Positions 4,583 through 30,500 are shown, numbered from the stretch's first letter. The stretch is 42,751 nt of DNA from Rozella allomycis CSF55 (GCA_000442015.1 KE561071.1:124001-166751); one strand, 5' to 3'. Translations and numbers: made by a program. The notes: generated by a model from the letters alone, not told the origin.

Positions 4583-6346
4583 TTAATCACTATCATCATC
4601 CGATGACCAATAAGAATTCGATGATCGGTCATCTGAAGAATTATCAGATGCACTAGAGTCATTATCTGAATAGCTTCCTTCAGAGCTTTGGTCAGAACAA
4701 TCAGAGGCAGAGCTACGATCATAATCACCGCAGTATTCCACTGAAGAATCATCACTGGAAGTGTCATAACGGGAATATTTTTTTCTGGAAGAATTGTCAT
4801 CTGACGAGTCGTCATCTGAAGAATCATTGGAATTTCGGGAAGATTCGCTATCATTAGACGAATCATAATTATTCGAGGAAGCATCAGAATTAGAAGAATT
4901 ATCACTCGAAGTGTCATAACGTGAATATTTTTTCCTCGAAGAACCATCATCTGAAGAGTCATCAATTGAAGAATCATTGGAATTTCGGGAAGAATCGCTG
5001 TCATTAGAAGAAGCATAGTTGTTCGAGGAAGCATCAGAATTAGAAGAATTATCACTCGAAGTGTCATAACGTGAATATTTTTTCGAGCGATGCGAAGAAG
5101 CGCTATCATTAGAGGAATCATTACTATCAGAGGAATCACCTGACTTAGAAGAATCCCCCGGGGAGTTGTTGAAGCCTTTATTTACACCTTTAGACGAATA
5201 TTTAAAAGAAAAGGCCCTACTTACTATTCTTTCAGAATCTGATTCTGGATATTTACCAATGTTTTCACAATCAAATTCAATTTTAGATGGCGTCTTTGTA
5301 GGGTTCTCTCTACGTTCTCTTTCTTCCTTCAGGACATTGCGCCAGTAGCTGCCTTGAAATGATTCCATGCAAACATTGCAAAAGATGGTTTTAAACCTGT
5401 TGTAAACATCCTCAACTCCCCACTTTTCAACTGCTACTTTTGTAACTTTATCAGTGCCCCAAACAGGAATGTCAAAATACGTCCTATATGGGGACTGAGG
5501 AGCCATAATATCGTAATGGATAGACTTGTCCGCTTTATGGCTTTTGTAAAGAAAAATAGGCTTTCCCCAAGTAGGATAGGGCTGAAATATAGGTAAATCG
5601 AAAGCATAACCGTTTGAATTGTCGAATATTGTGATTATCGGTCTATTGATAATACTTGCGACTATCCAAGCGGATAAAGTATTATCGAATCTTTCACTTG
5701 AATCTTCATTTAAACCAATTTTCTCAACGGTGGCAATGTACAGGTCAGACTTTGTAAAAGCACTAACTTGATGATAATTCCTTTTTAAAGCTTCGTTAAA
5801 GGAAATCGACATGAAAGCCTTGTATAAATCTTCTGTACCAGTGAAAATCTTTGACAATGACTTCCAGGCAGAACGGCCTTCTGTGACTGTAACAATCTTG
5901 AATGTTGAAGCCCAATCGATGCAATCATTGAATGAATTATAAATTTCTGGGGAATCACTTGAAGATTTTTCGGCACAAAATTGACCAGAAAAGTATTTTG
6001 CTGTTGTCTGCGGAAAGTTTATATGCTTCATAATGCGAATATAGTCGTGATGACCTATGTGTTCGTAAGGATCAAACTGCCTTATGGTTTTGAGTGGGAC
6101 AGTCTTTTTGGAGGCTTCATATGCATAATTTAATGTTAGCTTTGTCGATTTGTAAGCAAATTTAAAGATGATGGTCAATAATAAATAAGTGTACTGGAGC
6201 AACAAAGACGCAGTCTTTAACACAATAGGAGAAATAGAGGGGCTGGATCTATCACTTTCAAATTCAAACTCCATGTAATATTCTCTCGCCGGAAGTCCTA
6301 TCACAGCAACCGCTAGTATGGCTAGCAGCAAGACAAAAATTTTCAT
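4583..6346 (-). CDS. Putative secreted OTU-like protein (catalytic Cys replaced by Ser) with Ser/Asp-rich repeat tail
   Basis: Intronless 587-aa ORF with signal peptide MKIFVLLLAILAVAVIG. EGRSAWKSLSKIFTGTEDLY resembles OTU DGNCLFRALS..LYG.E..H. ASIINRPIITI and PIFLY...IHYD match OTU C-terminal motifs. Paralogous to 6606-8171. Confidence 0.7.
   Translation of the reverse strand: MKIFVLLLAILAVAVIGLPAREYYMEFEFESDRSSPSISPIVLKTASLLLQYTYLLLTIIFKFAYKSTKLTLNYAYEASKKTVPLKTIRQFDPYEHIGHHDYIRIMKHINFPQTTAKYFSGQFCAEKSSSDSPEIYNSFNDCIDWASTFKIVTVTEGRSAWKSLSKIFTGTEDLYKAFMSISFNEALKRNYHQVSAFTKSDLYIATVEKIGLNEDSSERFDNTLSAWIVASIINRPIITIFDNSNGYAFDLPIFQPYPTWGKPIFLYKSHKADKSIHYDIMAPQSPYRTYFDIPVWGTDKVTKVAVEKWGVEDVYNRFKTIFCNVCMESFQGSYWRNVLKEERERRENPTKTPSKIEFDCENIGKYPESDSERIVSRAFSFKYSSKGVNKGFNNSPGDSSKSGDSSDSNDSSNDSASSHRSKKYSRYDTSSDNSSNSDASSNNYASSNDSDSSRNSNDSSIDDSSDDGSSRKKYSRYDTSSDNSSNSDASSNNYDSSNDSESSRNSNDSSDDDSSDDNSSRKKYSRYDTSSDDSSVEYCGDYDRSSASDCSDQSSEGSYSDNDSSASDNSSDDRSSNSYWSSDDDSD
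4745..5085 (-). repeat. 150-bp (50-aa) coding tandem repeat, about 2.3 units, Ser/Asp/Asn-rich with KKYSRYD
   Basis: gaagtgtcataacg recurs at 4758, 4908 and 5058, an exact 150-bp period. Confidence 0.92.
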
Positions 6347-6605: not shown

Positions 6606-8171
6606 TTATTCTTTAAGAATGAGCCATTTGTACTTGTGTCCCATCAATTCGACTTTTGAGGATCGGGAGTTCAAGCCGGTGTTGATTTTGCAGCTAAGAA
6701 TCTTTTCCCAGATAGGAATAACAATATTGATATGATCAACTCCGTAATCACAATTGATAAATTTTAAGGTGGCCTGTTTAACGTCGTCATCGTTAAAGTT
6801 GAACATTCTCTTGTTTTGGAAATAATAATAGTAAGTCAATGCGATAATTGATCTAAATTCTTTCTTGTTTCCATACAATAAAGTAGAAATGGACTTGTAC
6901 AAAGCTTGACCTTCAAAACGACGTTGTTTAGTTCCAAACATTTTATGAAGAGAAAGATCTACAGTTTTGCCAGTGAAACCACGAGAACTTGCAGTGCTTT
7001 TAACTTCTCTCATCATTCTTATCAGATCATCTTCACTGTAATTTGTTCCAAGATAGTTGGATGTATCGTCACGTCTATAGATTTGAACGATTGAATGATC
7101 ACTGCCGCTTGAAGAAGAGGACGAAGCTGATGATCTTCTTGAACCAGGTTGATATGCTGACTCGAATTCAGGAACAGTTTGATATTGAAATTCCGGTTCT
7201 TCCCAATTACGTCCTTCAACAAAATCGGCTACAAATTCACATTTAATATCTTCAAAGTACTTTAAGAGTTTTGGCCCGAATCTTTGGAAAACATAGTTAT
7301 AATTCAAATTGTCACCGTGATACACTCTTAAAGTTGGGATTTTGACTATATCATTAACACTGCCTGATCGTGAAAGGGCAACAAGATGATATTGATAATT
7401 ATTGCCTATTTGCTGTCTATAAAGAAAGATTGGTTTTCTCCAGTTAAGACTCCTAAACACAGGAAGGTCAAAGTTATAATCTTTCTCACCCTCATACAAT
7501 GTGATGATTGGTCTATTAATAACACTAGCAGCTACCTTGGCAGCTAAAGTTCCGTCGAACGGCATACTGTCGCTGTATTTATCAATGGATTTACAAACCT
7601 TTTCATAAATTCTAATATCATCAACGCGTTCATACATTTTTCCAAAGTTTCTAATCAATCCTTCGTTGCACACAATAGCCATAAATTCCTTGTGCTTATT
7701 TTCATCACCCAAATAGATTTTCGCCAAACTTCTCCAAGCTGAATAGTCCACTTTTTCAATTTTGTCAACTCCATATTTGATCAATTCCTTATAGGGCAGG
7801 GCAAGTGAATGTGGGGGAAGAGTAAATTTTCTAACGCCTCTAAAAGAATTAATACCACCAGAAAAGTAATCACCAGTTGATGAAGCATATGGACCATGAC
7901 CTTTGCGAATCTTTTCAAGGACGTCATCATAATCAGCTTGAGACACGTAGTTGGAAGGATTGAAGTACATACGACCTTTGACCATTCTATGAACTTTTTG
8001 GAAGGGGGTCATGATCAGACTAAACATCAACGACATGAAAAAAGCCATAACAGTAGAGAGAGCAGAGTCAGATTGTATCACAGCGCTTGAATTTCTTTGA
8101 GAGCCTCGGTTTGGAGGGGCAGAGAGCACACTGCTGACCGCAACCAAAAGTAGAGCAGAAAAAATTTTCAT
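6606..8171 (-). CDS. Putative secreted protein with two degenerate OTU-like domains; paralog of 4583-6346
   Basis: Intronless 521-aa ORF with signal peptide MKIFSALLLVAVSSVLS. Domain 1: DYSAWRSLAKIYLGDENKHKEF...ASVINRPIITL...FDLPVF...KPIFLY. Domain 2: EGQALYKSISTLLYGNKKEFRSI...WEKILSCKI. Confidence 0.65.
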   Translation of the reverse strand: MKIFSALLLVAVSSVLSAPPNRGSQRNSSAVIQSDSALSTVMAFFMSLMFSLIMTPFQKVHRMVKGRMYFNPSNYVSQADYDDVLEKIRKGHGPYASSTGDYFSGGINSFRGVRKFTLPPHSLALPYKELIKYGVDKIEKVDYSAWRSLAKIYLGDENKHKEFMAIVCNEGLIRNFGKMYERVDDIRIYEKVCKSIDKYSDSMPFDGTLAAKVAASVINRPIITLYEGEKDYNFDLPVFRSLNWRKPIFLYRQQIGNNYQYHLVALSRSGSVNDIVKIPTLRVYHGDNLNYNYVFQRFGPKLLKYFEDIKCEFVADFVEGRNWEEPEFQYQTVPEFESAYQPGSRRSSASSSSSSGSDHSIVQIYRRDDTSNYLGTNYSEDDLIRMMREVKSTASSRGFTGKTVDLSLHKMFGTKQRRFEGQALYKSISTLLYGNKKEFRSIIALTYYYYFQNKRMFNFNDDDVKQATLKFINCDYGVDHINIVIPIWEKILSCKINTGLNSRSSKVELMGHKYKWLILKE

Positions 8172-14363: not shown

Positions 14364-15868
14364 TTATGCTTTGGATTTCTTTGACTTTTTCTCTTTCAAA
14401 GATTTGTGCTTTTTCTTTTCTTCTTTATCCTTTTTCTTTTCTTCCTTTGATTTCTTTTCTTTGATTTCTTCTTTTGGAACAATTTCATCAGTTTCTTCTT
14501 CTTTCATTGGAACTTCATCTATTTTAAGATTGAAGGGTTAATTTACCAATAGATTGCATAACTTCTTGCATAACATCAGTATTCTTTCTTGGAACGAGTC
14601 CAGATTCATAAAACATCATTCTTTCTTCAACTTGAGATTTAAGAGCCTCACCAAATTTCGTTGTTGGGTTTTCTGAAAAGCAATCTATTCTGGAAGCGAT
14701 GGAACATTTGTTAGCCAAATAACGTGAGATTCTACCTTTATTCTTTGCCCCTGCTCTTCCGATGAATGAAGAATGAAAAATGAGACCATATTTTGGAGTT
14801 TTCCCTCTTGTTTTCAAAGCTCTAAAGAGAGCCTTTTCAGCGCCAAGGATTTGAACAGTTGAGGCAGGATATTTGGAAAGGTTAGTCAAACTTCCTGCAT
14901 GGGCGATGAGTCTGGCTCCAACTATTTCTCCAATGAGGGTAGCAAGGTTTGGTGCAACAATATTCATTTTGTTTTGAAGATAAGAAAATAAACGAGCGCG
15001 GTACTCGTTAAGTGAAATCACTCTGTCAGCAAATAGTTTAATGTTGATTAAATCAATAGGAGAAATATCAGTTCCCATTGATGATCTTGCCGCGTCAATG
15101 ATGTGTTGTGCAAGATCTTCATCACCATCAACTATCTTTGTAATGTCATTTATTTTGTCTTCAGAAAGAGTGCTTTTATCACCAATAAGTTTGGCCAACA
15201 CTGCATACTTGGCATTGTCATTAACCAAGCGAACGAGTTCAGGAAAATGCCATGAATACCATTCTCTAATTCTCATTGAGAAGGTGTTAACATCCTTGTC
15301 CAATTGATCCAACAATGAAATAGCTTGAATAATCATATTGTCGCTTCTATTCACATTAAATTTCACTTTCGCTCTTGAATAACTATGACCAAGCCCCAAT
15401 TGTGCTCTAGCTAAATCTCCTTGCTTAAATTGTTTCAACATTTTCTCTCCGTGATATCTTATTCCACGGATAATCTCCAAAACAACCTCATCAAATGAAC
15501 AATTATATTCAAGCTCTTGCTTAATAGAACTAGCCAAAGCTTTATCACTAACACCGATTGTTATTTTAGATTTCTTTCCAGCATTTCCTAGATTCATTTC
15601 CAAAAAGTTCTTCAAAGATTCACCAACTATGCCTTCAGAAATATCGTTAATATTCTCCAAAGCATCACCCGCACTCTTAAAAGGCATAAAAGATTTTAGT
15701 TTAATCATTTGTCCAAATTTAGACAAATCAAGAATGCTTTTTTGCACTTCACCAAGTTCTTGTCCGATTTCCTCAGATTGGACTCTTTCAAACAATGCAT
15801 ACCCAGAAGCAGTTTCAAAAAGAATAAATAATGGCTATTTTTTCATTTAAAACTAATATTCTTACCAT
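14364..15868 (-). CDS. NOP56: Nucleolar protein 56 (box C/D snoRNP)
   Basis: [77 protein letters not shown]-rich tail. The first exon is the ATG alone (intron 15835-15865), with a second intron near 14520-14547. Confidence 0.95.
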
Positions 15869-15970
15869 TTCGATTTTTTTCTTTTTTCCAGGGCTTAGGT
15901 GGCGCGGTTTCTTTAGCTTAAATCGAATTTGAACACCACAAAACAAATTAAAAAGAATAGATTTTATTGA

Positions 15971-17407
15971 TTATTGCGAGTTTATACGGTGTTTATTATT
16001 AGAGAGCATTTTGATCTTGTTCACTAGACTCATGTCATTTCCCAACATGGCTATATCACTAGGCGTTTCGTTATGTGCATTTACTTTTGTAAAATCAGCT
16101 TCATACATATACAATAAATCAATTATGAGGTCACGAACATCATTTGTTTGTTCTATTTCCATGACATAATGGATGGGAAATTTGCCAATGATATCTGGCT
16201 TATTTGCGTCTGCCCCGTATTCTAATAACAGCATGACTATATCGACTTCTTCACAGTTAATAGCATGTATTAGTAAGGGTAGCCCATTTGAATATTCATG
16301 CACGAGATTGGGAAAACGTTCGAACAACCATTTTAGTCCTTCGACTGCACCTGTTTGCACCAAAACATGAAGGGAATTATATCCATGTTCAATCGTTTCT
16401 TCCGGGCTTATTCCTTTTTTGAACAGCCATGAAGCCGCTTCTAATTTATTGTTCAATAATGCATGCGCAAGTGGTGACAGCCAACCCATATATTCCGCGT
16501 CTCTGAATAAGCATGAATTGATTTCGTCCGCTGTTAATTTAAGCATATCTAGATATTTTTGACTGTTTGCATTGATAGCAGCTTTGAACAATGATTTGGA
16601 CATCCCAGCGTTAACAATTGCATGTATTTCGTCGTGCAGCTTGTGCTCAAAAAATTGGCCCGCAAAGTCAGGGAGTTCATTATTTAAAAAATTAATTGTC
16701 TTCCGAATTATTTTTCTCGAAACATCACGGGAAAACAGGTACTTGGCACAAACTGAGAATAATGGCCCATTGATGATAATTTTAAAAATGAATTTGAGTT
16801 TATCGAAACAGCTTAATCTCTTTATAATATTATCAACCTGAACAGGGATTTCCTTCAGTGGCAATTCGTCATCAAGTCTTTTGAATACTTTTAATGCTGA
16901 ATAAATGTCAAAATATTTTCCTGAGTGTGCGCCTTGGATGTAAAAGCTTAGCTCTGCCGTGCTTAAATTATATAACATGTTTGGATCAACTGTGAGAACA
17001 TTGTTGGTATAGTAATTCTCGATGTATGACAGGGCATTGTTCACGCTTTGTGTCCTCGTTAATACTTGCTTTTTTGCTATATTCACCCATGATTTTAAAT
17101 CAATTGGCCAAATTATTGCATTTTTGGATGAGTGAATCGTGTGCATCATCCAATCAACATCGTCGTTCGTTAGTTTCTGTGGATTTTCAAAAAGATAATC
17201 CAATCTGCTAGAAGCTAATTCGTTTAATGCTCTTGAAATCTTATAGAACTTTGAATGCACAGGCAATACATGTCTTGCAACTTCATTTATTGGGATTCTT
17301 TTGCAAACAATGGAGATAACTTCTTCAGGTAGATTTAGAATATACGAACTATTTTTCATGCGGTCGATGAAACTAAATAACAACAATATTATAGCATGAA
17401 GTAGCAT
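15971..17407 (-). CDS. Putative secreted F-box + ankyrin-repeat protein (array copy 4)
   Basis: Intronless. Hydrophobic N-terminus MLLHAIILLLFSF; F-box-like LNLPEEVISIVCKRIP...LPVHSKFYKI; C-terminal ankyrin repeats such as LLLEYGADANKPDIIGKFPIHY. Confidence 0.8.
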   Translation of the reverse strand: MLLHAIILLLFSFIDRMKNSSYILNLPEEVISIVCKRIPINEVARHVLPVHSKFYKISRALNELASSRLDYLFENPQKLTNDDVDWMMHTIHSSKNAIIWPIDLKSWVNIAKKQVLTRTQSVNNALSYIENYYTNNVLTVDPNMLYNLSTAELSFYIQGAHSGKYFDIYSALKVFKRLDDELPLKEIPVQVDNIIKRLSCFDKLKFIFKIIINGPLFSVCAKYLFSRDVSRKIIRKTINFLNNELPDFAGQFFEHKLHDEIHAIVNAGMSKSLFKAAINANSQKYLDMLKLTADEINSCLFRDAEYMGWLSPLAHALLNNKLEAASWLFKKGISPEETIEHGYNSLHVLVQTGAVEGLKWLFERFPNLVHEYSNGLPLLIHAINCEEVDIVMLLLEYGADANKPDIIGKFPIHYVMEIEQTNDVRDLIIDLLYMYEADFTKVNAHNETPSDIAMLGNDMSLVNKIKMLSNNKHRINSQ

Positions 17408-17448
17408 ATTGCACTTTGACAGTGAGATAAAAGATGTAAAGATGTTTA

Positions 17449-18909
17449 TTATTTTGTCATATCCATTATAGAAAATACAGATCGTATCAAAGAGACAATG
17501 GTATGATCAGTTTCATTTGTAACGTAGTAGTTAATGTCATGGCCAAAGTAATCAACAGAATATACCTTTTCAGGATAATTAAGTAAAATTTCGGCCACAA
17601 CATTTGTTTTATTCAAATATACACCCAGGAGTAAAGGAGTCATACCGTTTGCATCAAAACAATCTAGATCTACTCTTACTTTCAATAAAGATGACAGAAA
17701 GTAGTTGTTAGGGCTTTCTACAGCATAGTGTGCCACATAACTCCCGGTGGGATCAATGGCGTTGATATCTGCTCCAAAGTTAAGAAGTAAATCGAATGCT
17801 TCAACGCGATTAAAATCAATCGCAGTCATTAACGTAGAGTATAAACAGCCAGATATATTTGCATGTTTAGGTTCTTTGTTGAGAATCCATTCCATTCCTA
17901 ATACATGATTTTCGATTATTAAATTGTGAAGTATTGAATAGCCATCTTCTTTAATGTCTAGTCTAGCTCCATTTTCATATAGCCACTGTGCTGCTTTGAA
18001 TTTGTTTTGAAAAAGTGCTTCCTCTATCAGTAATTTTCCTTGGACTCTCAAATTTGCATCTTGAACCACCATATTAAGGACAGATATGTTTTCATGTTCT
18101 ATTGCTGGTAAGTAAAGAAAGATCCGCTCAACCTCCTTTATAATATTTATTTCTTGTATTAAGTTTTGTTCCACAAGAAAATCGGATAGAAATGCGCCCG
18201 TGACTTTAGCAATTGAACGAATCATGTCTTTGGAGTACTCTGGTTTGAAAAAAAATTTTACCAGTACTCTATGTGGCCCAATTTGATAGAGAGTCTTAAT
18301 TAAAAAACTAGTTAAATCAAAGCTGCTAAGCATATTAATTAATTCATATAAAAACTGGTCTTCGATGCCATCACCATACATTTTTGTTACAAGCAATTGA
18401 GCAACAGGTAAAGAAATACACCCATTTTTGGTTTGTGTTTTTATTTCTTTTAACGCAGTTGCAAAACTCATTGTCTTTGTTTTTATGGCTGACAAGAAAT
18501 TTTGTGATATATTTTGTCTAGATGTCATTTTGTTATAGAGATTATGGAGAATTTCATGACAATCCACTGGTGTATTTTGTTTTGCTACTTCAAACCAATG
18601 TTTCAAATTGAAGGATACCAACGCCACACCTTTTTCAAAAACAGGGAAGAAGTCGTTCAGCCATTCGATATCTTCGTTGCTCAACATTGCGGGGTTTTGA
18701 TATAAATAATTGGCCCTACCTATTACTACTCTCCTTTCTCGATTAATAGCTTTGTAAGAATTTTTGTCAAGAGTCATTAAAGATCGACAAACCACTTCCG
18801 TGCAAAAGTTAGAAAAAATATTCCTCAAAACCTCCCCGGGAAATTTTTTGAAGTGAGTTGAAGATATTTGAGCTGACAATAGTAAGAAAACTGAAAAAAA
18901 GTAGATCAT
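17449..18909 (-). CDS. Putative secreted F-box + ankyrin-repeat protein (array copy 3)
   Basis: Intronless. Signal peptide MIYFFSVFLLLSAQISS; F-box-like FKKFPGEVLRNIFSNF; ankyrin repeats LLLNFGADINAIDPTGSYVAHYA and DANGMTPLLLG. Confidence 0.8.
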   Translation of the reverse strand: MIYFFSVFLLLSAQISSTHFKKFPGEVLRNIFSNFCTEVVCRSLMTLDKNSYKAINRERRVVIGRANYLYQNPAMLSNEDIEWLNDFFPVFEKGVALVSFNLKHWFEVAKQNTPVDCHEILHNLYNKMTSRQNISQNFLSAIKTKTMSFATALKEIKTQTKNGCISLPVAQLLVTKMYGDGIEDQFLYELINMLSSFDLTSFLIKTLYQIGPHRVLVKFFFKPEYSKDMIRSIAKVTGAFLSDFLVEQNLIQEINIIKEVERIFLYLPAIEHENISVLNMVVQDANLRVQGKLLIEEALFQNKFKAAQWLYENGARLDIKEDGYSILHNLIIENHVLGMEWILNKEPKHANISGCLYSTLMTAIDFNRVEAFDLLLNFGADINAIDPTGSYVAHYAVESPNNYFLSSLLKVRVDLDCFDANGMTPLLLGVYLNKTNVVAEILLNYPEKVYSVDYFGHDINYYVTNETDHTIVSLIRSVFSIMDMTK

Positions 18910-18943
18910 AATGGTGGCTTTGCCTTTGCCAAAGAAGGGTAGA

Positions 18944-20428
18944 TCAGTTTATTGATGTTATACTTGGCCGATTTAGTAAGAAATAAGCAGCATCAATGTA
19001 TTGTACGATCATAGGGCTTGTATGATATTCAATGTAATTAAGAACAGATTCACCAAATGCATCAACAGTATTTACAAGGTCAGGCCTTCTGGATAAAATG
19101 GCAGCAGTGGTAATTGAATTATCAAGCCATATGGCTGTTAAAAGAGGTGTCCTTCCGTCAGCGTCAAGAACGTCCATGTCAACATTCCCTTCCAAGAGTG
19201 CCAAAATGAATTGAGCGTCGTTTTCTTCTACTGCTACATGGGCCACACTACTTCCTTGTAAATCTTTACCATTCACATCGGCTCCATTCTTTAATAGCAA
19301 ATTGAAGATATTAAAGTCTTGGAATTCGATTGCCAGTATCAAGGGGGTAACAGATGGAGTGCGAATGTCAATCATTTCAGGGCGTCTCTCAATAATCCAT
19401 TTTACCAAATCAAAGCGTCTGTCCATAATTGAAATGTGTAAAAGATTGTACCCAAATTCATTGCACGACAAAAGATCGGCGCCTTTTGTAAACAACCACT
19501 CTGCTGATTTCAAGGCACCATTGAATAAAGCAATTTCAAGAGGGGTTTGATTGCTTATGAATTCATTTGCATTTATTTCATATTTTTCTAAGAGATCGAT
19601 TCTTTCCAGGGTAATGAATGACGAGTAGAAATATTTCAAGAGGCCAGAATCTTTGATAATTTCTATTTCTTCAAGCATGTTATGCATAACCATATAATTA
19701 CAGAGATTCTGAAAGAGATGATTTGCTACAGTGAAGTGCGATCGTATCATGTCATTTGAATAAATAGGACGTATTAAAAATTTAATAAAAACATTCATGT
19801 AGTGTATGCTATTATTAAATACATTAAATATAAATGTAGAGAGATCAAAGCTACTTATTGCTGATATTAGCTTTTTCAAGTCACGTGAATCAATTTTTTC
19901 ATCATTCTCATTACTCTTTTGCATAATTAAAATAGCCATCTGCGTGGACAAACTGCAACCTTGGAATGCCTTAAAACTGATGTGCTCAATCGACTGTTTA
20001 AAAGTCATCGATTTGATTAGGTGTACTTCTTCTTTAGAAAATGTACATCTCTGAAGCAAATAAAAGGCTGTTTTATCAACATAGTCAGATAAAGTAGGAA
20101 ATTTCTTCTTGACCTTCATAATCCATTGCTCCCTATTGAAGGACTGAAACACTATCCGTCTTTGGAGAGTTTGCATGTTTTCCGCCATCCAAACAACGTC
20201 TTCAGCTTTTATTTTGTCTGGATTTTGAAAATAGTAATTAGATTTCCCTACTTGTTCATGTCTAGCACCATTAAGTGATTTTGCAGTAGCCTTATTGAGC
20301 AAACATAAATCGCCAAAAGTACGATTTGGGCAAATCCGAGAAATAATATTATCCAGTACATCTTTAGGTATAGAATCAACAGGTAAACAGAAGATTACTG
20401 ATGAAAAAAGAAACAATGTAAATTTCAT
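18944..20428 (-). CDS. Putative secreted F-box + ankyrin-repeat protein (array copy 2)
   Basis: Intronless. Signal peptide MKFTLFLFSSVIFC; F-box-like VDSIPKDVLDNIISRI; ankyrin repeats TPLILAIE...LLKNGADVNGKDLQG and DADGRTPLLTA. Confidence 0.8.
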   Translation of the reverse strand: MKFTLFLFSSVIFCLPVDSIPKDVLDNIISRICPNRTFGDLCLLNKATAKSLNGARHEQVGKSNYYFQNPDKIKAEDVVWMAENMQTLQRRIVFQSFNREQWIMKVKKKFPTLSDYVDKTAFYLLQRCTFSKEEVHLIKSMTFKQSIEHISFKAFQGCSLSTQMAILIMQKSNENDEKIDSRDLKKLISAISSFDLSTFIFNVFNNSIHYMNVFIKFLIRPIYSNDMIRSHFTVANHLFQNLCNYMVMHNMLEEIEIIKDSGLLKYFYSSFITLERIDLLEKYEINANEFISNQTPLEIALFNGALKSAEWLFTKGADLLSCNEFGYNLLHISIMDRRFDLVKWIIERRPEMIDIRTPSVTPLILAIEFQDFNIFNLLLKNGADVNGKDLQGSSVAHVAVEENDAQFILALLEGNVDMDVLDADGRTPLLTAIWLDNSITTAAILSRRPDLVNTVDAFGESVLNYIEYHTSPMIVQYIDAAYFLLNRPSITSIN

Positions 20429-20466
20429 GTCACGGGGCTAAGCCTTTGCCAAAAGTGAATATTTAT

Positions 20467-22044
20467 TTAATATAGAGACAAGGCCCTTCTTGCTTTAATT
20501 ATTTGCAAATGTATTTTAATATCATCATCGGCTTCAACGGTAGATAAATATTGTTCTGGTAACTCTCCAAAAGCATTTCTAGTATTCAACAAGTCCGGTT
20601 GAATATCAAGGAGGATCCTAACTAATTTGATATTTTTGTTTTGAATTGAATAATGTAGGGCTGTCATTCCATCGCAGTTTAGAGATCTAATGTCTGCCCC
20701 CATGGAAATCAAATGTCTTAGGAAAAAGAAATCTTCCATCTCAGATTCCATAGCGTAGTGGATAGGATAATTTCCGTATAGATCTGGTACTGATACATCT
20801 GCGCCCATCTTAATTAGAGCCAAATATGCGTCTTTCATCTCAAATTCTATTGCAACCATCAGAGGAGTCATTACAGTACTTCTTTCATTGATTTTTCTTG
20901 GGAATTTTTCAAGTAGCCAAACTGTTTGTAAAACCATGCCATATCGAATACACGCATGCACAATGTCTTCCCCTCGTGAGTTCAATTTATCAGGTGTCAA
21001 ACCTCTTTCTATTAGCCATTCAGCAGAGTTGAATTTAAACCCCCAGAGGGCATACATTAGTGGATGAAGTAAAGTAACCTCACCTTCAGGGAGTCTAGGG
21101 TCTACAGACAGTGTTCGATACAATTGTTTTTCTGTTATGTTTAAAGAATTTAGAAATGGTATATTATCAAAGAGAATTCCAGCTTGAAGGAAAACGTGTC
21201 CCAAGCCAGCATTCACAAGCACATTTATCTCATCTTTCATTTGAAGATTTACCATTGATATCCAAAAGTCTTCATATTGAATTGAAATATACTTTGAAAT
21301 ATTTATAAGCATGGATTTAGAATTCAGTGGGCTGAAAAGATATTTGACCAATGTTGGAAAATACTCATCATATGAAATGACCAGGTAAATAAATCTCAAT
21401 CTATCGAACGGATTAACCCTTCGGCATAGTAATTTTATGTTTCTTTCAATATCCAGCTTTTCATTATTAACATTAATTATCATTTTATCATGTATTCCTA
21501 GCGCCGTGTGAAGTGAAATATATTGATCACAATTATAACTTTGTATTAAATCTATAATTGTACTAACATTGGTGTTTGCCAGGTAATGCTTTGAGAAAGA
21601 AATTGATCTTGACACTCCAAATGGATAGAGGGAATGTAAGAAATTAAGTACGGGCTTGATAGATTCCACGGGTAGAAATTCCTTTGTTATAGTTTTAAAC
21701 ACCTTGTCACACCAACTTTTTAAGTCAACGTTTTCAAACAATGCATATGGCAAAACTCGCCATAGTTCCTCCTTCATCCAGAGTAGTTTCTTGATTGTAA
21801 CCTTGTCAGGATTTTGAAACAGGTAATTGCATTTAGCAGCAATGAAAGGTTTGGTTGTTTGGGTGATATTAGAAAAGCGTGAATTCAAAGGCTGTACTGC
21901 TAGTGCCGATTTTTCTGGCTCTAATTTGGACAAGATTGATATCAAAAGTTCATTTGGCAAATCGGTTAGTTTAGTTTTGTTTGCTATTGGACTAGATGAA
22001 ACAATCAGAATCAATGCAAGAAAGCTGACAATTAGTGTTGTCAT
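20467..22044 (-). CDS. Putative secreted F-box + ankyrin-repeat protein (array copy 1)
   Basis: Intronless. Signal peptide MTTLIVSFLALILIVSS; near-canonical F-box LTDLPNELLISILSKLEP; ankyrin repeats TPLMVAIE...GADVSVPDLYGNYPIHYA and NCDGMTALHYS. Confidence 0.85.
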   Translation of the reverse strand: MTTLIVSFLALILIVSSSPIANKTKLTDLPNELLISILSKLEPEKSALAVQPLNSRFSNITQTTKPFIAAKCNYLFQNPDKVTIKKLLWMKEELWRVLPYALFENVDLKSWCDKVFKTITKEFLPVESIKPVLNFLHSLYPFGVSRSISFSKHYLANTNVSTIIDLIQSYNCDQYISLHTALGIHDKMIINVNNEKLDIERNIKLLCRRVNPFDRLRFIYLVISYDEYFPTLVKYLFSPLNSKSMLINISKYISIQYEDFWISMVNLQMKDEINVLVNAGLGHVFLQAGILFDNIPFLNSLNITEKQLYRTLSVDPRLPEGEVTLLHPLMYALWGFKFNSAEWLIERGLTPDKLNSRGEDIVHACIRYGMVLQTVWLLEKFPRKINERSTVMTPLMVAIEFEMKDAYLALIKMGADVSVPDLYGNYPIHYAMESEMEDFFFLRHLISMGADIRSLNCDGMTALHYSIQNKNIKLVRILLDIQPDLLNTRNAFGELPEQYLSTVEADDDIKIHLQIIKARRALSLY

Positions 22045-22188: not shown

Positions 22189-23287
<1,099 letters not shown>

Positions 23288-26040: not shown

Positions 26041-27387
26041 TCAATATTTGCAACTTTCCAGTTCTTCGGATTTAATGTTCTCATCATTGCACGGTCGAGT
26101 AAAACCAAAATCAATAATAAATACTTTGCCCTCGATGTTCTTGACAAAGTTACGATTGCAAACATCACCATGAATCAATCCTTGGTCATGAAATTGTCGA
26201 AGACAATCCTGTTTGAGACTCACAAACTCTCCTTCTTCTGTTTGTTGGCCGCAATCAGAAATAACAATCCCCGTAAACATGTCCCAAATCTTAACACATG
26301 CAATGAATTTGGGAATGACTTTGCCTTGAAGACTTTCCAATTTCTTGTACACTGATACCTCATTTTTCAACTCTTTCTCTTTCCAGGACTCTTTTGTCAA
26401 GTCCTTTAATTTAAAGATGACATTTTCGTGCCCCCAGAGATTGCCTCGAACTACGGAACCGATTCTGCCATTCGCAATACACTCATTCAACCAAAATTCA
26501 TTCTGCTTAAGGATTTTTACACCATAATTCTTGTTCTTGAGTTTCCGGTGTACTTTAGGTGTTGAGTTTGGAGTGGTGAAAGGGGATACGTGAAACCAAT
26601 TGTGGTGCGATAGTAATACAATGCCAAGAAAAGCGGAGATAATATTGAACTTGATTCCAATATCACCGCACAAACCAGGAAGAATTGTATCATGGTAGAA
26701 AGGCCTTGACACTCTCAAACAACCACCTTCCTTGTCTGTAAAGCCGCGTTCAAAAAACCAAGTACAGTTGAAATTGGTGAGAACTCCGTATTTATGTGAA
26801 TTCACCGACATGTAACCGTAAACTTGATTTACGGCCTTAAAAATCTTTTTATGATGGTACTCTTTAAGTTGACTTTCTCTCTGATAGGTTGCAATAATGT
26901 CACCAACTTCTCCCATCGCCCAGGGAGTCTTAACTTGAATTGTTCCTTTTGGCTTTCTATAAACTTCTGTTCCTTCACCGGTCATCCACAAAGCATCGAC
27001 AGCTCCAATCAAGTGGGCTTCTCCCCCGGGTTTACGAATACTGCTTTTTATTCCCATATTCTTTAAACAGGATTGAACAGGCCTGTAAATGTTTGTAAGA
27101 AGATATGCTTCTACGTCAGCTTCACAGGAACATAGCAAATCATCGTCTTCAATAAATTTCTCTTTTTCCATTTTATTACAGAAAGATTCTTTAGTAAAAT
27201 AAGTCCTAAGTGCTTCAGATACCTCTTGTTCAAACGATTCCCAAAGCAAAAGTTTTTCTGGCTCTCTTGGACAAACAGGGTTTGTAGTATTAGTGGATGT
27301 GTGAGATACTTCAGGCACTACTCTTGGAAGTTCAATACTATTTAATAACTTGATGGATTTGTAGACGGGCATATTGTGGCGATGCAA
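26041..27387 (-). CDS. CR/Crinkler-type REase-like domain + protein kinase-like domain
   Basis: N-terminal GAVDALW...GTIQVKTPW...QVYGYM...YGVLTNF (PD-(D/E)xK-like). C-terminal GRIGSV, FKLKD, ELKNEVSVY, IHGDVCNRNF and IIDFG kinase motifs. First in-frame ATG at 27372; true start uncertain. Confidence 0.75.
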   Translation of the reverse strand: MHRHNMPVYKSIKLLNSIELPRVVPEVSHTSTNTTNPVCPREPEKLLLWESFEQEVSEALRTYFTKESFCNKMEKEKFIEDDDLLCSCEADVEAYLLTNIYRPVQSCLKNMGIKSSIRKPGGEAHLIGAVDALWMTGEGTEVYRKPKGTIQVKTPWAMGEVGDIIATYQRESQLKEYHHKKIFKAVNQVYGYMSVNSHKYGVLTNFNCTWFFERGFTDKEGGCLRVSRPFYHDTILPGLCGDIGIKFNIISAFLGIVLLSHHNWFHVSPFTTPNSTPKVHRKLKNKNYGVKILKQNEFWLNECIANGRIGSVVRGNLWGHENVIFKLKDLTKESWKEKELKNEVSVYKKLESLQGKVIPKFIACVKIWDMFTGIVISDCGQQTEEGEFVSLKQDCLRQFHDQGLIHGDVCNRNFVKNIEGKVFIIDFGFTRPCNDENIKSEELESCKY

Positions 27388-27560: not shown

Positions 27561-30500
27561 GTTTGGAATTTCGTAAAGGGCAAATATGGAGCCGAAACGG
27601 CTAAATTGAAAATTTCAGCACGACGAGCCCTAATGAATCTTCAAATGGGTGCCGACATGAGTTTGGAACACTATATTAGAGAGCACAAGAAACTACTTAA
27701 TTGGGAGGAAAGTCTCAGGAGAAGATTTAGTCAGAGCGCTATTAAATGGAATTAATGAAGAACTCTCATTCAAGGTGGATTGTTACTTCAATAACCTAGA
27801 TGACTCAAAGAAATTCGATCATCGTTCAGTGCTCGACATGTTGCAGCAGCTTATTCAGGAGGAATCTGCACGACAAGCGACAAGGATGAAGACTGAAGCG
27901 AGAAGTGGGAATGAGGAGTTGGCATTGCAGGTGCGAGGAAGTCAGAGGACTCCGGGAAGGGTCAAGAAAAATGGTGGTGGTGGTCAAGATAATTCACGAG
28001 AGTTGAATGGAAATAATCAAGTAAATCAGATGAGACGGAAGCAATTTGAAAAACGCAAATGTTATAGTTGCGGGAGTATAGAGCGTCTCATACGGGATTG
28101 TCCTGATAAACAAGGTCGACGTAGGTCACAAAATGACGATGGACAAGAAGTTGCGTTAATGGCGGTGCAGAATCAGAGCAACAAGAAGTACGATTGGATT
28201 ATCGACTCAGGAGCAAGTTCGCATATGACGTCAAACTTGGACGTGTTTACAAAGCTAGATAGAAACATGAAAACAAATATTTTTATTGCAGATGAAAGAC
28301 AGTTGGACGTGGAAGGAGTTGGGGAAGCAGAAATAGTTGTGGAAGACGGAGAAGGCACCTTTAGCAAGCTTAAATTACTTAATGTTTATTATAGTCCAAA
28401 CCTACAACATAATCTATTATCTATTTCAAAGAGGATGAATCAACCTAATATCGACGTGGAGTTCCAGAAAGTTTGTTGCATCATCAAGAAACGCGGACAA
28501 CCAATGGCCATGGCGGAAAAAATCAATTCATTGTACATATTGAAGACATTTCCGAAGGTAGAAGCAAACAGTGAAGGATTTGTAGCTACTGAAGAAACCA
28601 ACATTATGAAGGAGACTGATGAATGGCATTTCAAATTAGGACACATCAATGAAGATTATTTGAGGTATATAAGCAAGCATAAAATGGTTATTGGAATACC
28701 AGAATTTGAAAGAGACGAGAAGATGAGTCACTGTGACATTTGCGCGGAGAACAAATCCAAGAGAACAGTCAACAGGACACCATTGAGAAGGCGAACTACG
28801 ATTGGACAATTAGTGCATGTGGACTTAGTTGGACCGATGGAAGTACTAACGCCGTCCAAGAAGAAGTACATGTTGACGATGGTCGATGATTACTCTCGAA
28901 AGACGTTTATACTATTACTGGAAAAGGAAAGCGATGCAGTGAAGCATATGTTAGAAGTATTTAATATTATTGAAACTCAAGCCAAGACGAAAATACATAA
29001 TGTAAAGAGTGATAATGGTGGAGAGTTTGGCAATGAGACATTTGAGAATTATTGTTATGAAATTGGAATTCAGCATGTGACGACAGACAGTTATTCGCCG
29101 GAAATGAATGGGGTTGTTGAAAGGCAGAATGGGATTGTTGTAGCCATGATTCGCTGTCTACTGAGGCACGCAAATTTGCCAAAATGTTTCTGGGGAGAAA
29201 TGGCAATGACGGCTGCATACTAAGTGAACCGCACGCCTGCGAAATTGTTAGAGAATAAAACGCCTGAAGAAGTCTAAAGCGGAGTGAAGCCAAATGTTGA
29301 AATGCTCAAACCTGTTGGCATCAAGTGTTATATTCATATTCCGAAGCAAAGAAGAAAGAAGCTTGACGAAAATGCTGTGGTGGGAACTTTACTTGGATTT
29401 GATGAACTCACAAGACAATATCGAGTGCGTAGAGAGAACAGTAATATGGTTGTTAAAACAGCACACGTGAAAGTTATTGCTAAGCAAGAAAGCGTGAAAA
29501 CCTCAATATCAAAGTCGAATAAAGTCTTGGATAGTTTATTGAAAGAGGCAATAAATTCAGAACCCGAGGAATGAATACGCAAAGGCGTATTCACCAGTAT
29601 GTAGAATTCAATCAATCCGAATTGTATTATCTTTAGCCGTAGAATTGCAAATGCAAATTCATCAAATGGACTTGGATACGACATACCTCAACAGCAAGCT
29701 AGATAAAGAAATATACATGAAGATACCTCAAGGTTATAACTTGGAAAATTTAGAAGGAAAAGTATGGAAACTCAACAAGGCGTTGTACGGACTGAAACAA
29801 GCTGGCAGGTAATGGAACCTGGACATTGATAGCGATTTACGAAACGCCGGATTAAAGATATGCAAGGCAGATTAGTGCATATATTTAAAGAAACAAGATA
29901 ACCGAATGGTGATTGTGGCTCTATATGTTGATGATTTGATTATATTGTCGGAACAAAATGAGCTTTTGGAAGATACAAAGAGTTTATTGAAGCAGTGGTA
30001 TTCTATGAAGGATATGGGACAGCTATCATGGATCCTGGGAATAAAGGTTGATATTGGGTCTCAGTATATTGAGTTAAGTCAGAAGCAATTTATTGTGAAT
30101 ATGCTACAGGATTTTAACATTGAAGAATGCAGTGATGTTTACAGTCCAATTGAGCCTGGTATAAAATATTCAATCGAAATGAGTCCACAAAATGAGGACG
30201 AAAGGCTAAAAATGAACGGCGTGCGATATCGTGACGCTGTTGGGCATTTGCAGTGGATTTGCAACATGACAAGACCCGACATGTCGTATGCAGTAGGGGT
30301 TGTGAGCAGGTACTGCAATGATCCGGGGTAATCGCACTGGAAGCTAGTTAAACGGATCCTGCAATATTTAAAATATTCTATGGATTATGTGTTAAGATAT
30401 GAGGAGAGTTGAAACGGGAGAATACAGGTTGTTGGATATTGTGATTCAAATTGGGCAAGCGAAATCGATGATAGGAAGTCAGTTGGTGGATATTTATTCT

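Follow-up and report, generated by a model that had tools for sequence, protein, structure and literature searches.

A tandem family of leader-bearing ankyrin proteins with F-box-like segments in Rozella allomycis, candidate adaptors for host SCF ligases

The DNA analysed here, referred to as the window, is a stretch of 42,751 nucleotides from Rozella allomycis CSF55 (GCA_000442015.1 KE561071.1:124001-166751), and at 15971-22044 it carries a tandem array of four genes, named A1 to A4, whose products combine an N-terminal hydrophobic leader, an F-box-like segment, a helical middle part and C-terminal ankyrin repeats. The four proteins probably form a Rozella-specific family of F-box/ankyrin adaptors of SCF (Skp1-cullin-F-box) ligases with a secretory leader, and they are candidate exported adaptors that could turn the protein-degradation machinery of the host on host proteins. 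Rozella represents the earliest-diverging fungal lineage, is kin to the microsporidia and cannot be grown without its host; to our knowledge, almost nothing has been established about how it controls the host cell. It is reported to live in the host cell as a plasmodium that lacks a wall and takes up host cytoplasm by phagocytosis (PMC6317583), and the guess of a fungal-type endoparasite, made in a first-pass annotation that had not been told the origin of the DNA, proved right.

The gene array, its public models and its distribution

All four genes lie on the minus strand as uninterrupted ATG-to-stop open reading frames (ORFs), namely A4 at 20467-22044 (525 aa), A3 at 18944-20428 (494 aa), A2 at 17449-18909 (486 aa) and A1 at 15971-17407 (478 aa), with A1, A2 and A3 sharing the architecture of A4. 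The co-oriented frames are separated by spacers of 41 bp (A1/A2), 34 bp (A2/A3) and 38 bp (A3/A4), and the ORF listing reproduces exactly the limits that the first-pass annotation had given for them. Alignment shows that the proteins are homologous over their full length at pairwise identities of 24-33%, A2 and A3 being the closest pair (33%), and a profile of the first 310 residues, run with hmmsearch against the six-frame translation of the window, finds four copies only, A1-A4.

That A1-A4 are ankyrin repeat proteins is certain. Each passes the Pfam gathering score for Ank_2 (cut-off 27.3 bits), with 47 bits for A1 (E = 4e-12), 54.2 for A2 (E = 2.2e-14), 69.9 for A3 (E = 2.9e-19) and 62.5 for A4 (E = 5.7e-17), and further families of the Ank clan (PF12796, PF13637, PF00023, PF13606) score above their cut-offs in every protein, as expected from the C-terminal repeats noted at first. 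By eye, about five or six repeats occupy the last ~180 residues. The ankyrin region of A4 spans approximately residues 325-510 (20515-21072), with limits estimated from the paralogue alignment, and the same alignment places its counterparts at approximately 18989-19546 in A3, 17500-18024 in A2 and 15998-16495 in A1 (all minus strand). Genes, homology and repeats are in this sense directly established. The part preceding the repeats is all-helical in an AlphaFold2 (AF2) model of A4 residues 1-310 built from the four sequences, with a predicted local distance difference test score (pLDDT) of 77 and a predicted template modelling score of 0.72.

The array is flanked by a Nop56-type gene and a GAPDH gene, both of which bear introns, and its G+C content (0.345-0.352) falls within that of the flanks (0.33-0.38). 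Given these neighbours and the matching composition, the array is native DNA of a compact, intron-bearing eukaryote, and a horizontal origin was set aside on the same grounds. In the Nop56-type gene (~15830-15870, minus strand) the ATG seems to be followed directly by a GTAAG...AG intron of ~40 nt, and the GAPDH gene (22189-23026) consists of ORF pieces split by short introns; no intron interrupts the four ankyrin genes, each of ~1.5 kb.

Two of the spacers share a 12-mer, TTTGGCAAAGGC, on the minus strand, which precedes A3 at 20442-20453 (38-bp spacer) and A2 at 18922-18933 (34-bp spacer). With one mismatch allowed, the window contains no further match; when it was shuffled 100 times, two or more matches arose in 6 cases. 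In both spacers a small GGC-NNN-GCC inverted repeat follows. The 12-mer may be a core promoter or shared control element, an element of the 3' end, or a remnant of the A2/A3 duplication. A scan for promoters and terminators of bacterial type, which is uninformative for a eukaryote, returned 30 promoter-like sites against 28.0 expected.

An upstream exon that would remove the leader finds no place in A1-A3, where spacers of 34-41 bp leave no room for it, and no in-frame ATG lies upstream of the start of any of the four genes. That the genes are intronless, as first proposed, is our preferred reading of the uninterrupted frames, with which two public gene models disagree. A4 is present in public protein sets as an exact full-length sequence (P0116), the sole correct full-length model among the four. 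The model of A2 (EPZ33216.1, P0178; 281 aa, 'hypothetical protein O9G_001185') lacks the N-terminus; it begins at ORF residue 128 and skips in-frame GT..AG pieces of 96, 24 and 114 nt. The model of A3 (EPZ33217.1, P0174; 243 aa, named 'ankyrin' or 'hypothetical protein O9G_001186') is partial, beginning at ORF residue 246 and skipping an in-frame GT..AG piece of 18 nt. The skipped pieces hold residues that are invariant in the family, and both models probably reflect annotation errors that conceal leader and F-box. The exact sequence of A1 was not found in the public protein collection. With two models lacking leader and F-box, and A1 lacking an exact public protein, surveys of secretomes or F-box proteins based on the public proteome would have missed the family.

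The far-downstream starts of the public A2 and A3 models would fit a different account, in which A1-A4 are either F-box/ankyrin proteins of the usual cytosolic kind or duplicates that are silent or decaying, with an N-terminus that has no targeting role or a start that lies elsewhere. A1 offers such a start in its in-frame Met17, just past the hydrophobic stretch. The next in-frame Met of the other proteins, however, comes at residue 90 in A4, 91 in A3 and 45 in A2, and its use would delete part or all of the F-box. All four frames are moreover open for 478-525 codons with conserved residues throughout, the hydrophobic leader is kept in each of them despite identities of only 24-33%, and it is the truncated models that skip family-invariant residues. 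We therefore regard this account as very unlikely.

Relatives outside the window were sought in several ways. With the 310-residue N-terminal profile, 3919 candidates yielded only P0116 and P0178, which are the window's own public proteins; a search with A4 residues 22-72 returned only A4 itself among nine candidates, and carries little information. None of 596 pattern matches in metagenome contigs was confirmed with the N-terminal profile, and two scans of viral contigs confirmed no sequence relative. When a full-length profile was run against 1.84 billion representatives, giant ankyrin proteins dominated the matches listed, and only P0116, P0174 and P0178 stood out among the 150 listed, where weaker paralogues may be hidden. 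A word-based search with full-length A3 gave 114 matches, each covering at most 58% of the query and running through the ankyrin repeats only, and language-model features place A4 residues 22-310 nearest to ankyrin clusters from Nucleocytoviricota and green algae. In line with the first-pass annotation, then, no orthologues were found in free-living fungi or elsewhere, in searches of limited sensitivity, and within that sensitivity the family looks Rozella-specific. The lack of an orthologue outside A1-A4 fits a lineage-specific, fast-diverged family.

The F-box-like segment and its modelled Skp1 complex

The F-box-like domain of A4 comprises residues 26-63 (21856-21969, minus strand) and is defined by sub-threshold Pfam matches, its helix pattern and predicted Skp1 contacts; the stretches matching these residues lie at 20267-20380 in A3, 18739-18852 in A2 and 17225-17338 in A1 (all minus strand). 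The F-box-like motifs quoted in the first-pass annotation are all present as written: LTDLPNELLISILSKL in A4, VDSIPKDVLDNIISRI in A3, FKKFPGEVLRNIFSNF in A2 and LNLPEEVISIVCKRI in A1.

In a Pfam scan of the whole proteins an F-box-like match appears only in A4 (E = 0.0038). As an isolated N-terminal segment, A4 scores 21.5 bits with F-box-like (PF12937; cut-off 24.3, E = 2.1e-4) and 15.8 bits with F-box (PF00646; cut-off 20.5, E = 0.013), and the A1 segment scores 12.9 bits with F-box (PF00646; cut-off 20.5, E = 0.11). These two families are the only ones among 24,736 Pfam models that the isolated segments match, in two of the four paralogues. Compared with the sequences in the PDB, the N-terminal profile gave a sole match, to a nucleoid occlusion protein (E = 0.3).

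Five residues are invariant in the four proteins, P30, Y74, N78, P79 and W89 (A4 numbering), and the hydrophobic columns 29, 33, 34, 37, 38, 41, 50 and 53 are kept in all of them. Set against the F-box consensus, the positions retained throughout are L/I/F/L-P, E/D, L/V, I/V and L/I/F. Four of the invariant residues (Y74, N78, P79 and W89) belong to the NY..QNP...W motif at residues 73-89 of A4 (21778-21828), which the paralogue alignment locates at 20189-20239 in A3, 18661-18711 in A2 and 17147-17197 in A1 (all minus strand), and the shared (N/D)Y..(Q/E)NP...W motif reported at the outset is real.

In the AF2 model of A4, three short helices (31-38, 43-50 and 55-63) come directly after L29-P30, a layout that we take to be that of an F-box; the pLDDT of this stretch is only 56-73. 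A separate model of residues 22-140 (pLDDT 74) has a similar helix pattern. Searched against PDB folds, the 310-residue model retrieves generic alpha-solenoids only (E > 0.1), and the shorter model has five F-box entries in its first 25 ranks, i.e., FBXO42, Cdc4 twice, FBXO31 and Skp2, with a probability of 0.66 for FBXO31 and a root-mean-square deviation of 3.1 over 52 columns. Among the viral folds of BFVD, 28 of the 50 matches listed are named F-box (best E = 0.057, probability 0.95), and in a structure search of the ESM Atlas, using the Atlas model of A4, eight of the ten matches listed are F-box, cyclin-F or FBXL clusters, at template modelling (TM) scores of 0.38-0.45. None of these matches is significant singly, and it is the agreement among them that constitutes the evidence.

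A stand-in Skp1 for complex modelling was obtained through a degenerate DNA pattern derived from a short Skp1 motif, which led to a giant-virus contig and many metagenome contigs; one Skp1 ORF was verified by Pfam, 20 full-length ORFs were aligned, and the first served as partner. When A4 residues 22-140 were folded with this metagenomic Skp1 in ESMFold2, the interaction prediction score from aligned errors (ipSAE) was 0.83 in three of three runs, against 0.02 for the best of three controls, so that the Skp1 pairing put forward in the first-pass annotation passes for A4 with the stand-in. In the benchmark, 51 of 78 solved complexes attain the ipSAE mark, as do 2 of 108 mismatched pairs. The partner has a pLDDT of 79, and at least 95% of the contacts are common to the runs. 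The modelled interface joins Skp1 residues 80-163 to A4 residues 23-58 plus 70-71, 74-75, 78 and 81, and the NY..QNP motif therefore lies at the modelled Skp1 interface. Together, the models support an F-box fold and a likeness to Skp1-bound F-boxes; as a model, the pass indicates such likeness rather than binding. On this basis A4 quite likely has a working Skp1-binding F-box, and the same is likely, at a lower level of confidence, for all four proteins.

The giant-virus contig is of note in its own right. Contig L001 of the metagenome-assembled genome encodes, at 261-737 on the minus strand, a 159-aa Skp1 homologue (PF01466, E = 3e-26; PF03931, E = 9.8e-11), which by these domain matches is a virus-borne SCF core subunit.

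The leader and the case for export

The leader of A4 comprises residues 1-21, MTTLIVSFLALILIVSSSPIA (21982-22044), and its counterparts are encoded at 20381-20428 in A3, 18859-18909 in A2 and 17366-17407 in A1 (all minus strand). The most hydrophobic 15-residue window starts at residue 1-4 in each protein, with Kyte-Doolittle means of 2.0-2.8, and no later 19-residue window exceeds 1.6 in any of A1-A4, which confirms that each has a hydrophobic leader and no other membrane-type segment. The uncharged N-terminal runs measure 10 (A1), 13 (A2), 15 (A3) and 21 (A4) residues; judged by length, they match the h-region of a signal peptide, and in three of the four they are too short for a membrane span. 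Small residues fit for positions -1 and -3 are seen by eye, and the leader of A4 appears in the AF2 model as a low-confidence helix (pLDDT 41-45). Judged from composition alone, the leaders look like signal peptides, and it is reasonably likely, slightly less so than a working F-box in all four, that the proteins enter the secretory pathway with cleavage of the leader.

The n-regions are uncharged in three of the four proteins. A similar leader, likewise without a charged n-region, is found in an enzyme of the lumen of the endoplasmic reticulum (ER) encoded in the same window, ER glucosidase II alpha, and the unusual n-regions of A1-A4 are thus no argument against a signal peptide in Rozella. 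The first exon of the glucosidase gene lies at 1893-2264 on the minus strand (E = 6.5e-7 to neutral alpha-glucosidase AB in the PDB).

Skp1 and the cullins reside in the cytosol or the nucleus, and a protein whose leader is cleaved leaves the cytosol of the parasite. An F-box that needs cytosolic Skp1, joined to a leader that removes the protein from the cytosol of its maker, favours export toward the host. We thus favour, with a probability of roughly 45%, the reading that A1-A4 are a Rozella-specific tandem family of SCF-type adaptors with a leader, exported to act on host Skp1-Cul1. Tandem duplication and strong divergence would have given rise to four SCF-type substrate adaptors, which a short hydrophobic leader of signal-peptide type would direct into the secretory pathway. 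In each, the divergent F-box would dock on the C-terminal domain of Skp1; it would be followed by a helical linker with the invariant NY..QNP..W motif and a middle part made up of helices only, and the substrate would be held by five or six ankyrin repeats. Exported by the wall-less intracellular thallus into the cytoplasm of the Allomyces host, the proteins would bind host Skp1-Cul1 and direct host proteins to ubiquitylation. We infer leader cleavage, export, the crossing of a host membrane, binding to host Skp1 and the existence of host targets; a secreted protein may still have a host membrane to cross, and export to the host is plausible.

Several observations weigh against this reading, and a first group concerns the F-box. 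None of the four paralogues reaches the Pfam gathering score for F-box, and the isolated segments of A2 and A3 give no F-box match at E up to 10, so that the F-box placed directly after the leader by the first-pass annotation stands as a divergent one, indicated by several partly independent tests, and not as one recognized by profile. At E up to 10, the N-terminal profile retrieves no F-box protein from the PDB sequences. The fold searches of PDB and BFVD returned no match at E ≤ 0.001, with TM scores all below 0.5. The Skp1 partner is a metagenomic stand-in of unnamed origin, A4 is the only paralogue folded with it, the complex was computed without use of alignments, and its pass may possibly reflect memory of the many solved Skp1-F-box structures. 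The modelled interface positions are also not significantly better conserved among the paralogues than others (permutation p = 0.29 and 0.36).

The missing profile matches and the lack of preferential conservation at the predicted interface would both be expected if A1-A4 were ankyrin proteins, secreted or at the cell surface, in which the F-box-like stretch has lost the ability to recruit SCF, with the motif behind the leader serving in sorting, host uptake or stability of the helical domain, and the ankyrin repeats binding or sequestering a target. Motifs placed soon after signal peptides are described as targeting proteins to hosts in other parasites, e.g., RxLR and PEXEL (PMC8595600). This alternative is at odds, however, with the wide margin by which the complex model passes (0.83 against 0.02), and with the retention, through identities of 24-33%, of the hydrophobic pattern and of the invariant residues P30, Y74 and N78, the last two at the interface of the model. 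We consider it quite unlikely.

The second group of adverse observations concerns topology. The 21-residue uncharged run of A4 could span a membrane, and the basic residues that follow the hydrophobic stretch in A4 (NKTK), A2 (HFKK) and A1 (DRMK) would, by the positive-inside rule, favour an anchor with the N-terminus outside and the C-terminus in the cytosol. Ankyrin proteins, moreover, normally fold in the cytosol. The run of A4 and the basic residues, together with n-regions that mostly lack charge, suit what we see as the main rival to export, namely endogenous membrane-tethered F-box proteins, held by an uncleaved signal anchor in the ER, the mitochondrial outer membrane or the plasma membrane, with the bulk of the protein in the parasite cytosol and serving its own Skp1-Cul1. 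The F-box evidence fits such proteins equally well. Membrane- or mitochondria-associated F-box proteins are known, as in yeast Mdm30 and Mfb1 and mammalian FBXL4, and leaderless proteins with an N-terminal F-box and ankyrin repeats exist as well (P0107 and P0109, with PF00646 and/or PF12937 plus Ank). The runs of A1, A2 and A3 are nevertheless short for a bilayer span, the modelled Skp1 contacts begin at residue 23, two residues past the hydrophobic stretch, and would be crowded against a membrane, and the finding of no orthologues in other fungi would be unusual for a housekeeping SCF receptor. Tethering in the parasite itself is accordingly unlikely in our view, if less so than the loss of SCF recruitment.

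Export toward the host thus remains the reading that we prefer. Its boldest form, in which Rozella exports bona fide F-box/ankyrin adaptors via the ordinary secretory pathway into another fungus and thereby rewires host SCF ligases, we put forward more tentatively than export of SCF-type adaptors as such. If true, it would be the first fungus-on-fungus case of F-box mimicry and the first in the Cryptomycota/Microsporidia lineage; it would imply a novel route for large folded repeat proteins across the host-parasite interface, and all four diverged paralogues would have host targets of their own. A small, bounded family with a Skp1-binding handle in the form of an LP-type F-box would offer a first molecular entry into the effector biology of Cryptomycota.

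Neighbouring features and relation to known systems

The window holds a second tandem pair of paralogues, at 4583-6346 and 6606-8171 on the minus strand, whose products of 587 and 521 aa share 30% identity over 282 residues (E = 1e-24) and match no Pfam family. MKIF and a classic hydrophobic leader open both proteins, and a long, repetitive Ser/Asp-rich tail closes the first; the pair may represent another secreted family of the parasite. A copia-type retroelement fragment lies at 27838-29223 and 29906-30331 on the plus strand, with GAG-pre-integrase, Pol beta-barrel and integrase core matches (E = 2.6e-20 to 1.9e-9), in a region of strong positive GC and AT skew. A 443-aa ORF at 26041-27372 on the minus strand has weak, sub-threshold kinase matches at its C-terminus (Pkinase, 21 bits against 31.7), and its product may be a divergent or truncated kinase-like protein.

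Pathogen F-box mimicry and secreted ankyrin proteins are both well known. What is new here is that a leader, an N-terminal F-box, a long helical stretch and ankyrin repeats are combined, and that this architecture occurs in a cryptomycotan that parasitizes another fungus. It is also new that public protein sets either mis-model or lack three of the four genes. No work on such proteins is apparent from the titles and abstracts of the literature on Rozella and F-boxes, a search that did not extend to the Rozella genome paper and its supplements, where an earlier mention is possible.

Legionella pneumophila AnkB and LegU1, Ralstonia RipG/GALA and Agrobacterium VirF resemble A1-A4, as far as they are described in the sources cited below, in having an N-terminal F-box followed by a repeat domain. 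Proteins of the AnkB class are described as mimics of host SCF adaptors in intracellular or invasive pathogens (PMC2790608, PMC12602876; for RipG7, PMC4617103), and Rozella, too, is a parasite that lives in a eukaryotic host cell. The bacterial effectors differ in their delivery, by type III or IV injection, and in lacking a Sec-type eukaryotic leader. Legionella AnkB is reported to carry a C-terminal CaaX farnesylation motif (PMC2916131); A1-A4 have none, their C-termini (..ALSLY, ..ITSIN, ..DMTK and ..INSQ) lacking a cysteine four residues from the end. Outside the ankyrin repeats, no sequence relationship to the bacterial F-box effectors was detected.

In the poxvirus ANK/PRANC and Orientia Ank proteins the ankyrin repeats are N-terminal and a truncated F-box is C-terminal, and A1-A4 have the reverse order, with the F-box first and the ankyrin repeats last. 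The viral and Orientia proteins are described as host SCF adaptors that combine ankyrin repeats with an F-box-like, Skp1-binding element (PMC4353913, PMC9414399, PMC4148323). Synthesis in the host cytosol, or injection into it, accounts for their lack of a leader, and no match to the PRANC family occurs among the Pfam matches of A1-A4 at E up to 1. The nearest fold neighbours of A4 residues 22-140 are F-box proteins of giant viruses (Pandoravirus, Marseillevirus, Orpheovirus and Klosneuvirus), and the BFVD matches include one 'F-box domain and ankyrin repeat protein'. These matches are weak (E = 0.057 at best, TM 0.25-0.47), and the viral proteins need no secretion signal.

Among eukaryotic parasites, the predicted secretome of Plasmodiophora brassicae is described as rich in ankyrin and RING proteins (PMC8595600), and the NemLGF2 family of the microsporidian Nematocida displodere, with 235 members, as combining a signal peptide with a C-terminal RING (PMC4928854). 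No homology of A1-A4 to either was detected. From what these sources describe, the likeness lies in intracellular eukaryotic parasites with lineage-specific, expanded families in which a predicted signal peptide is joined to a ubiquitin-ligase or protein-binding module, and the difference in the use of RING instead of an F-box and in the far larger size of the families. For both, an action on the ubiquitin system of the host has been proposed (PMC4928854, PMC8595600).

Closest in design is the SSGP-71 family of the Hessian fly, described as having a signal peptide, a cyclin-like F-box and leucine-rich repeats, with members that interact with host Skp proteins (PMC4617103). As presented there, it shares with A1-A4 a eukaryotic parasite as its source, a gene family that is large or duplicated, C-terminal repeats for choosing the target and, as candidate features of A1-A4, a secretion signal and an N-terminal F-box. 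It differs in that leucine-rich repeats take the place of ankyrin repeats, which in A1-A4 follow a long helical middle part, and in that SSGP-71 belongs to an insect feeding on a plant, whereas A1-A4 are four genes, known from sequence alone, of a fungus living inside a fungus. SSGP-71, NemLGF2 and the Plasmodiophora secretome are precedents for secreted mimics of the ubiquitin system in eukaryotic parasites, and with A1-A4 a comparison between Cryptomycota and the secreted RING families of microsporidia would become possible.

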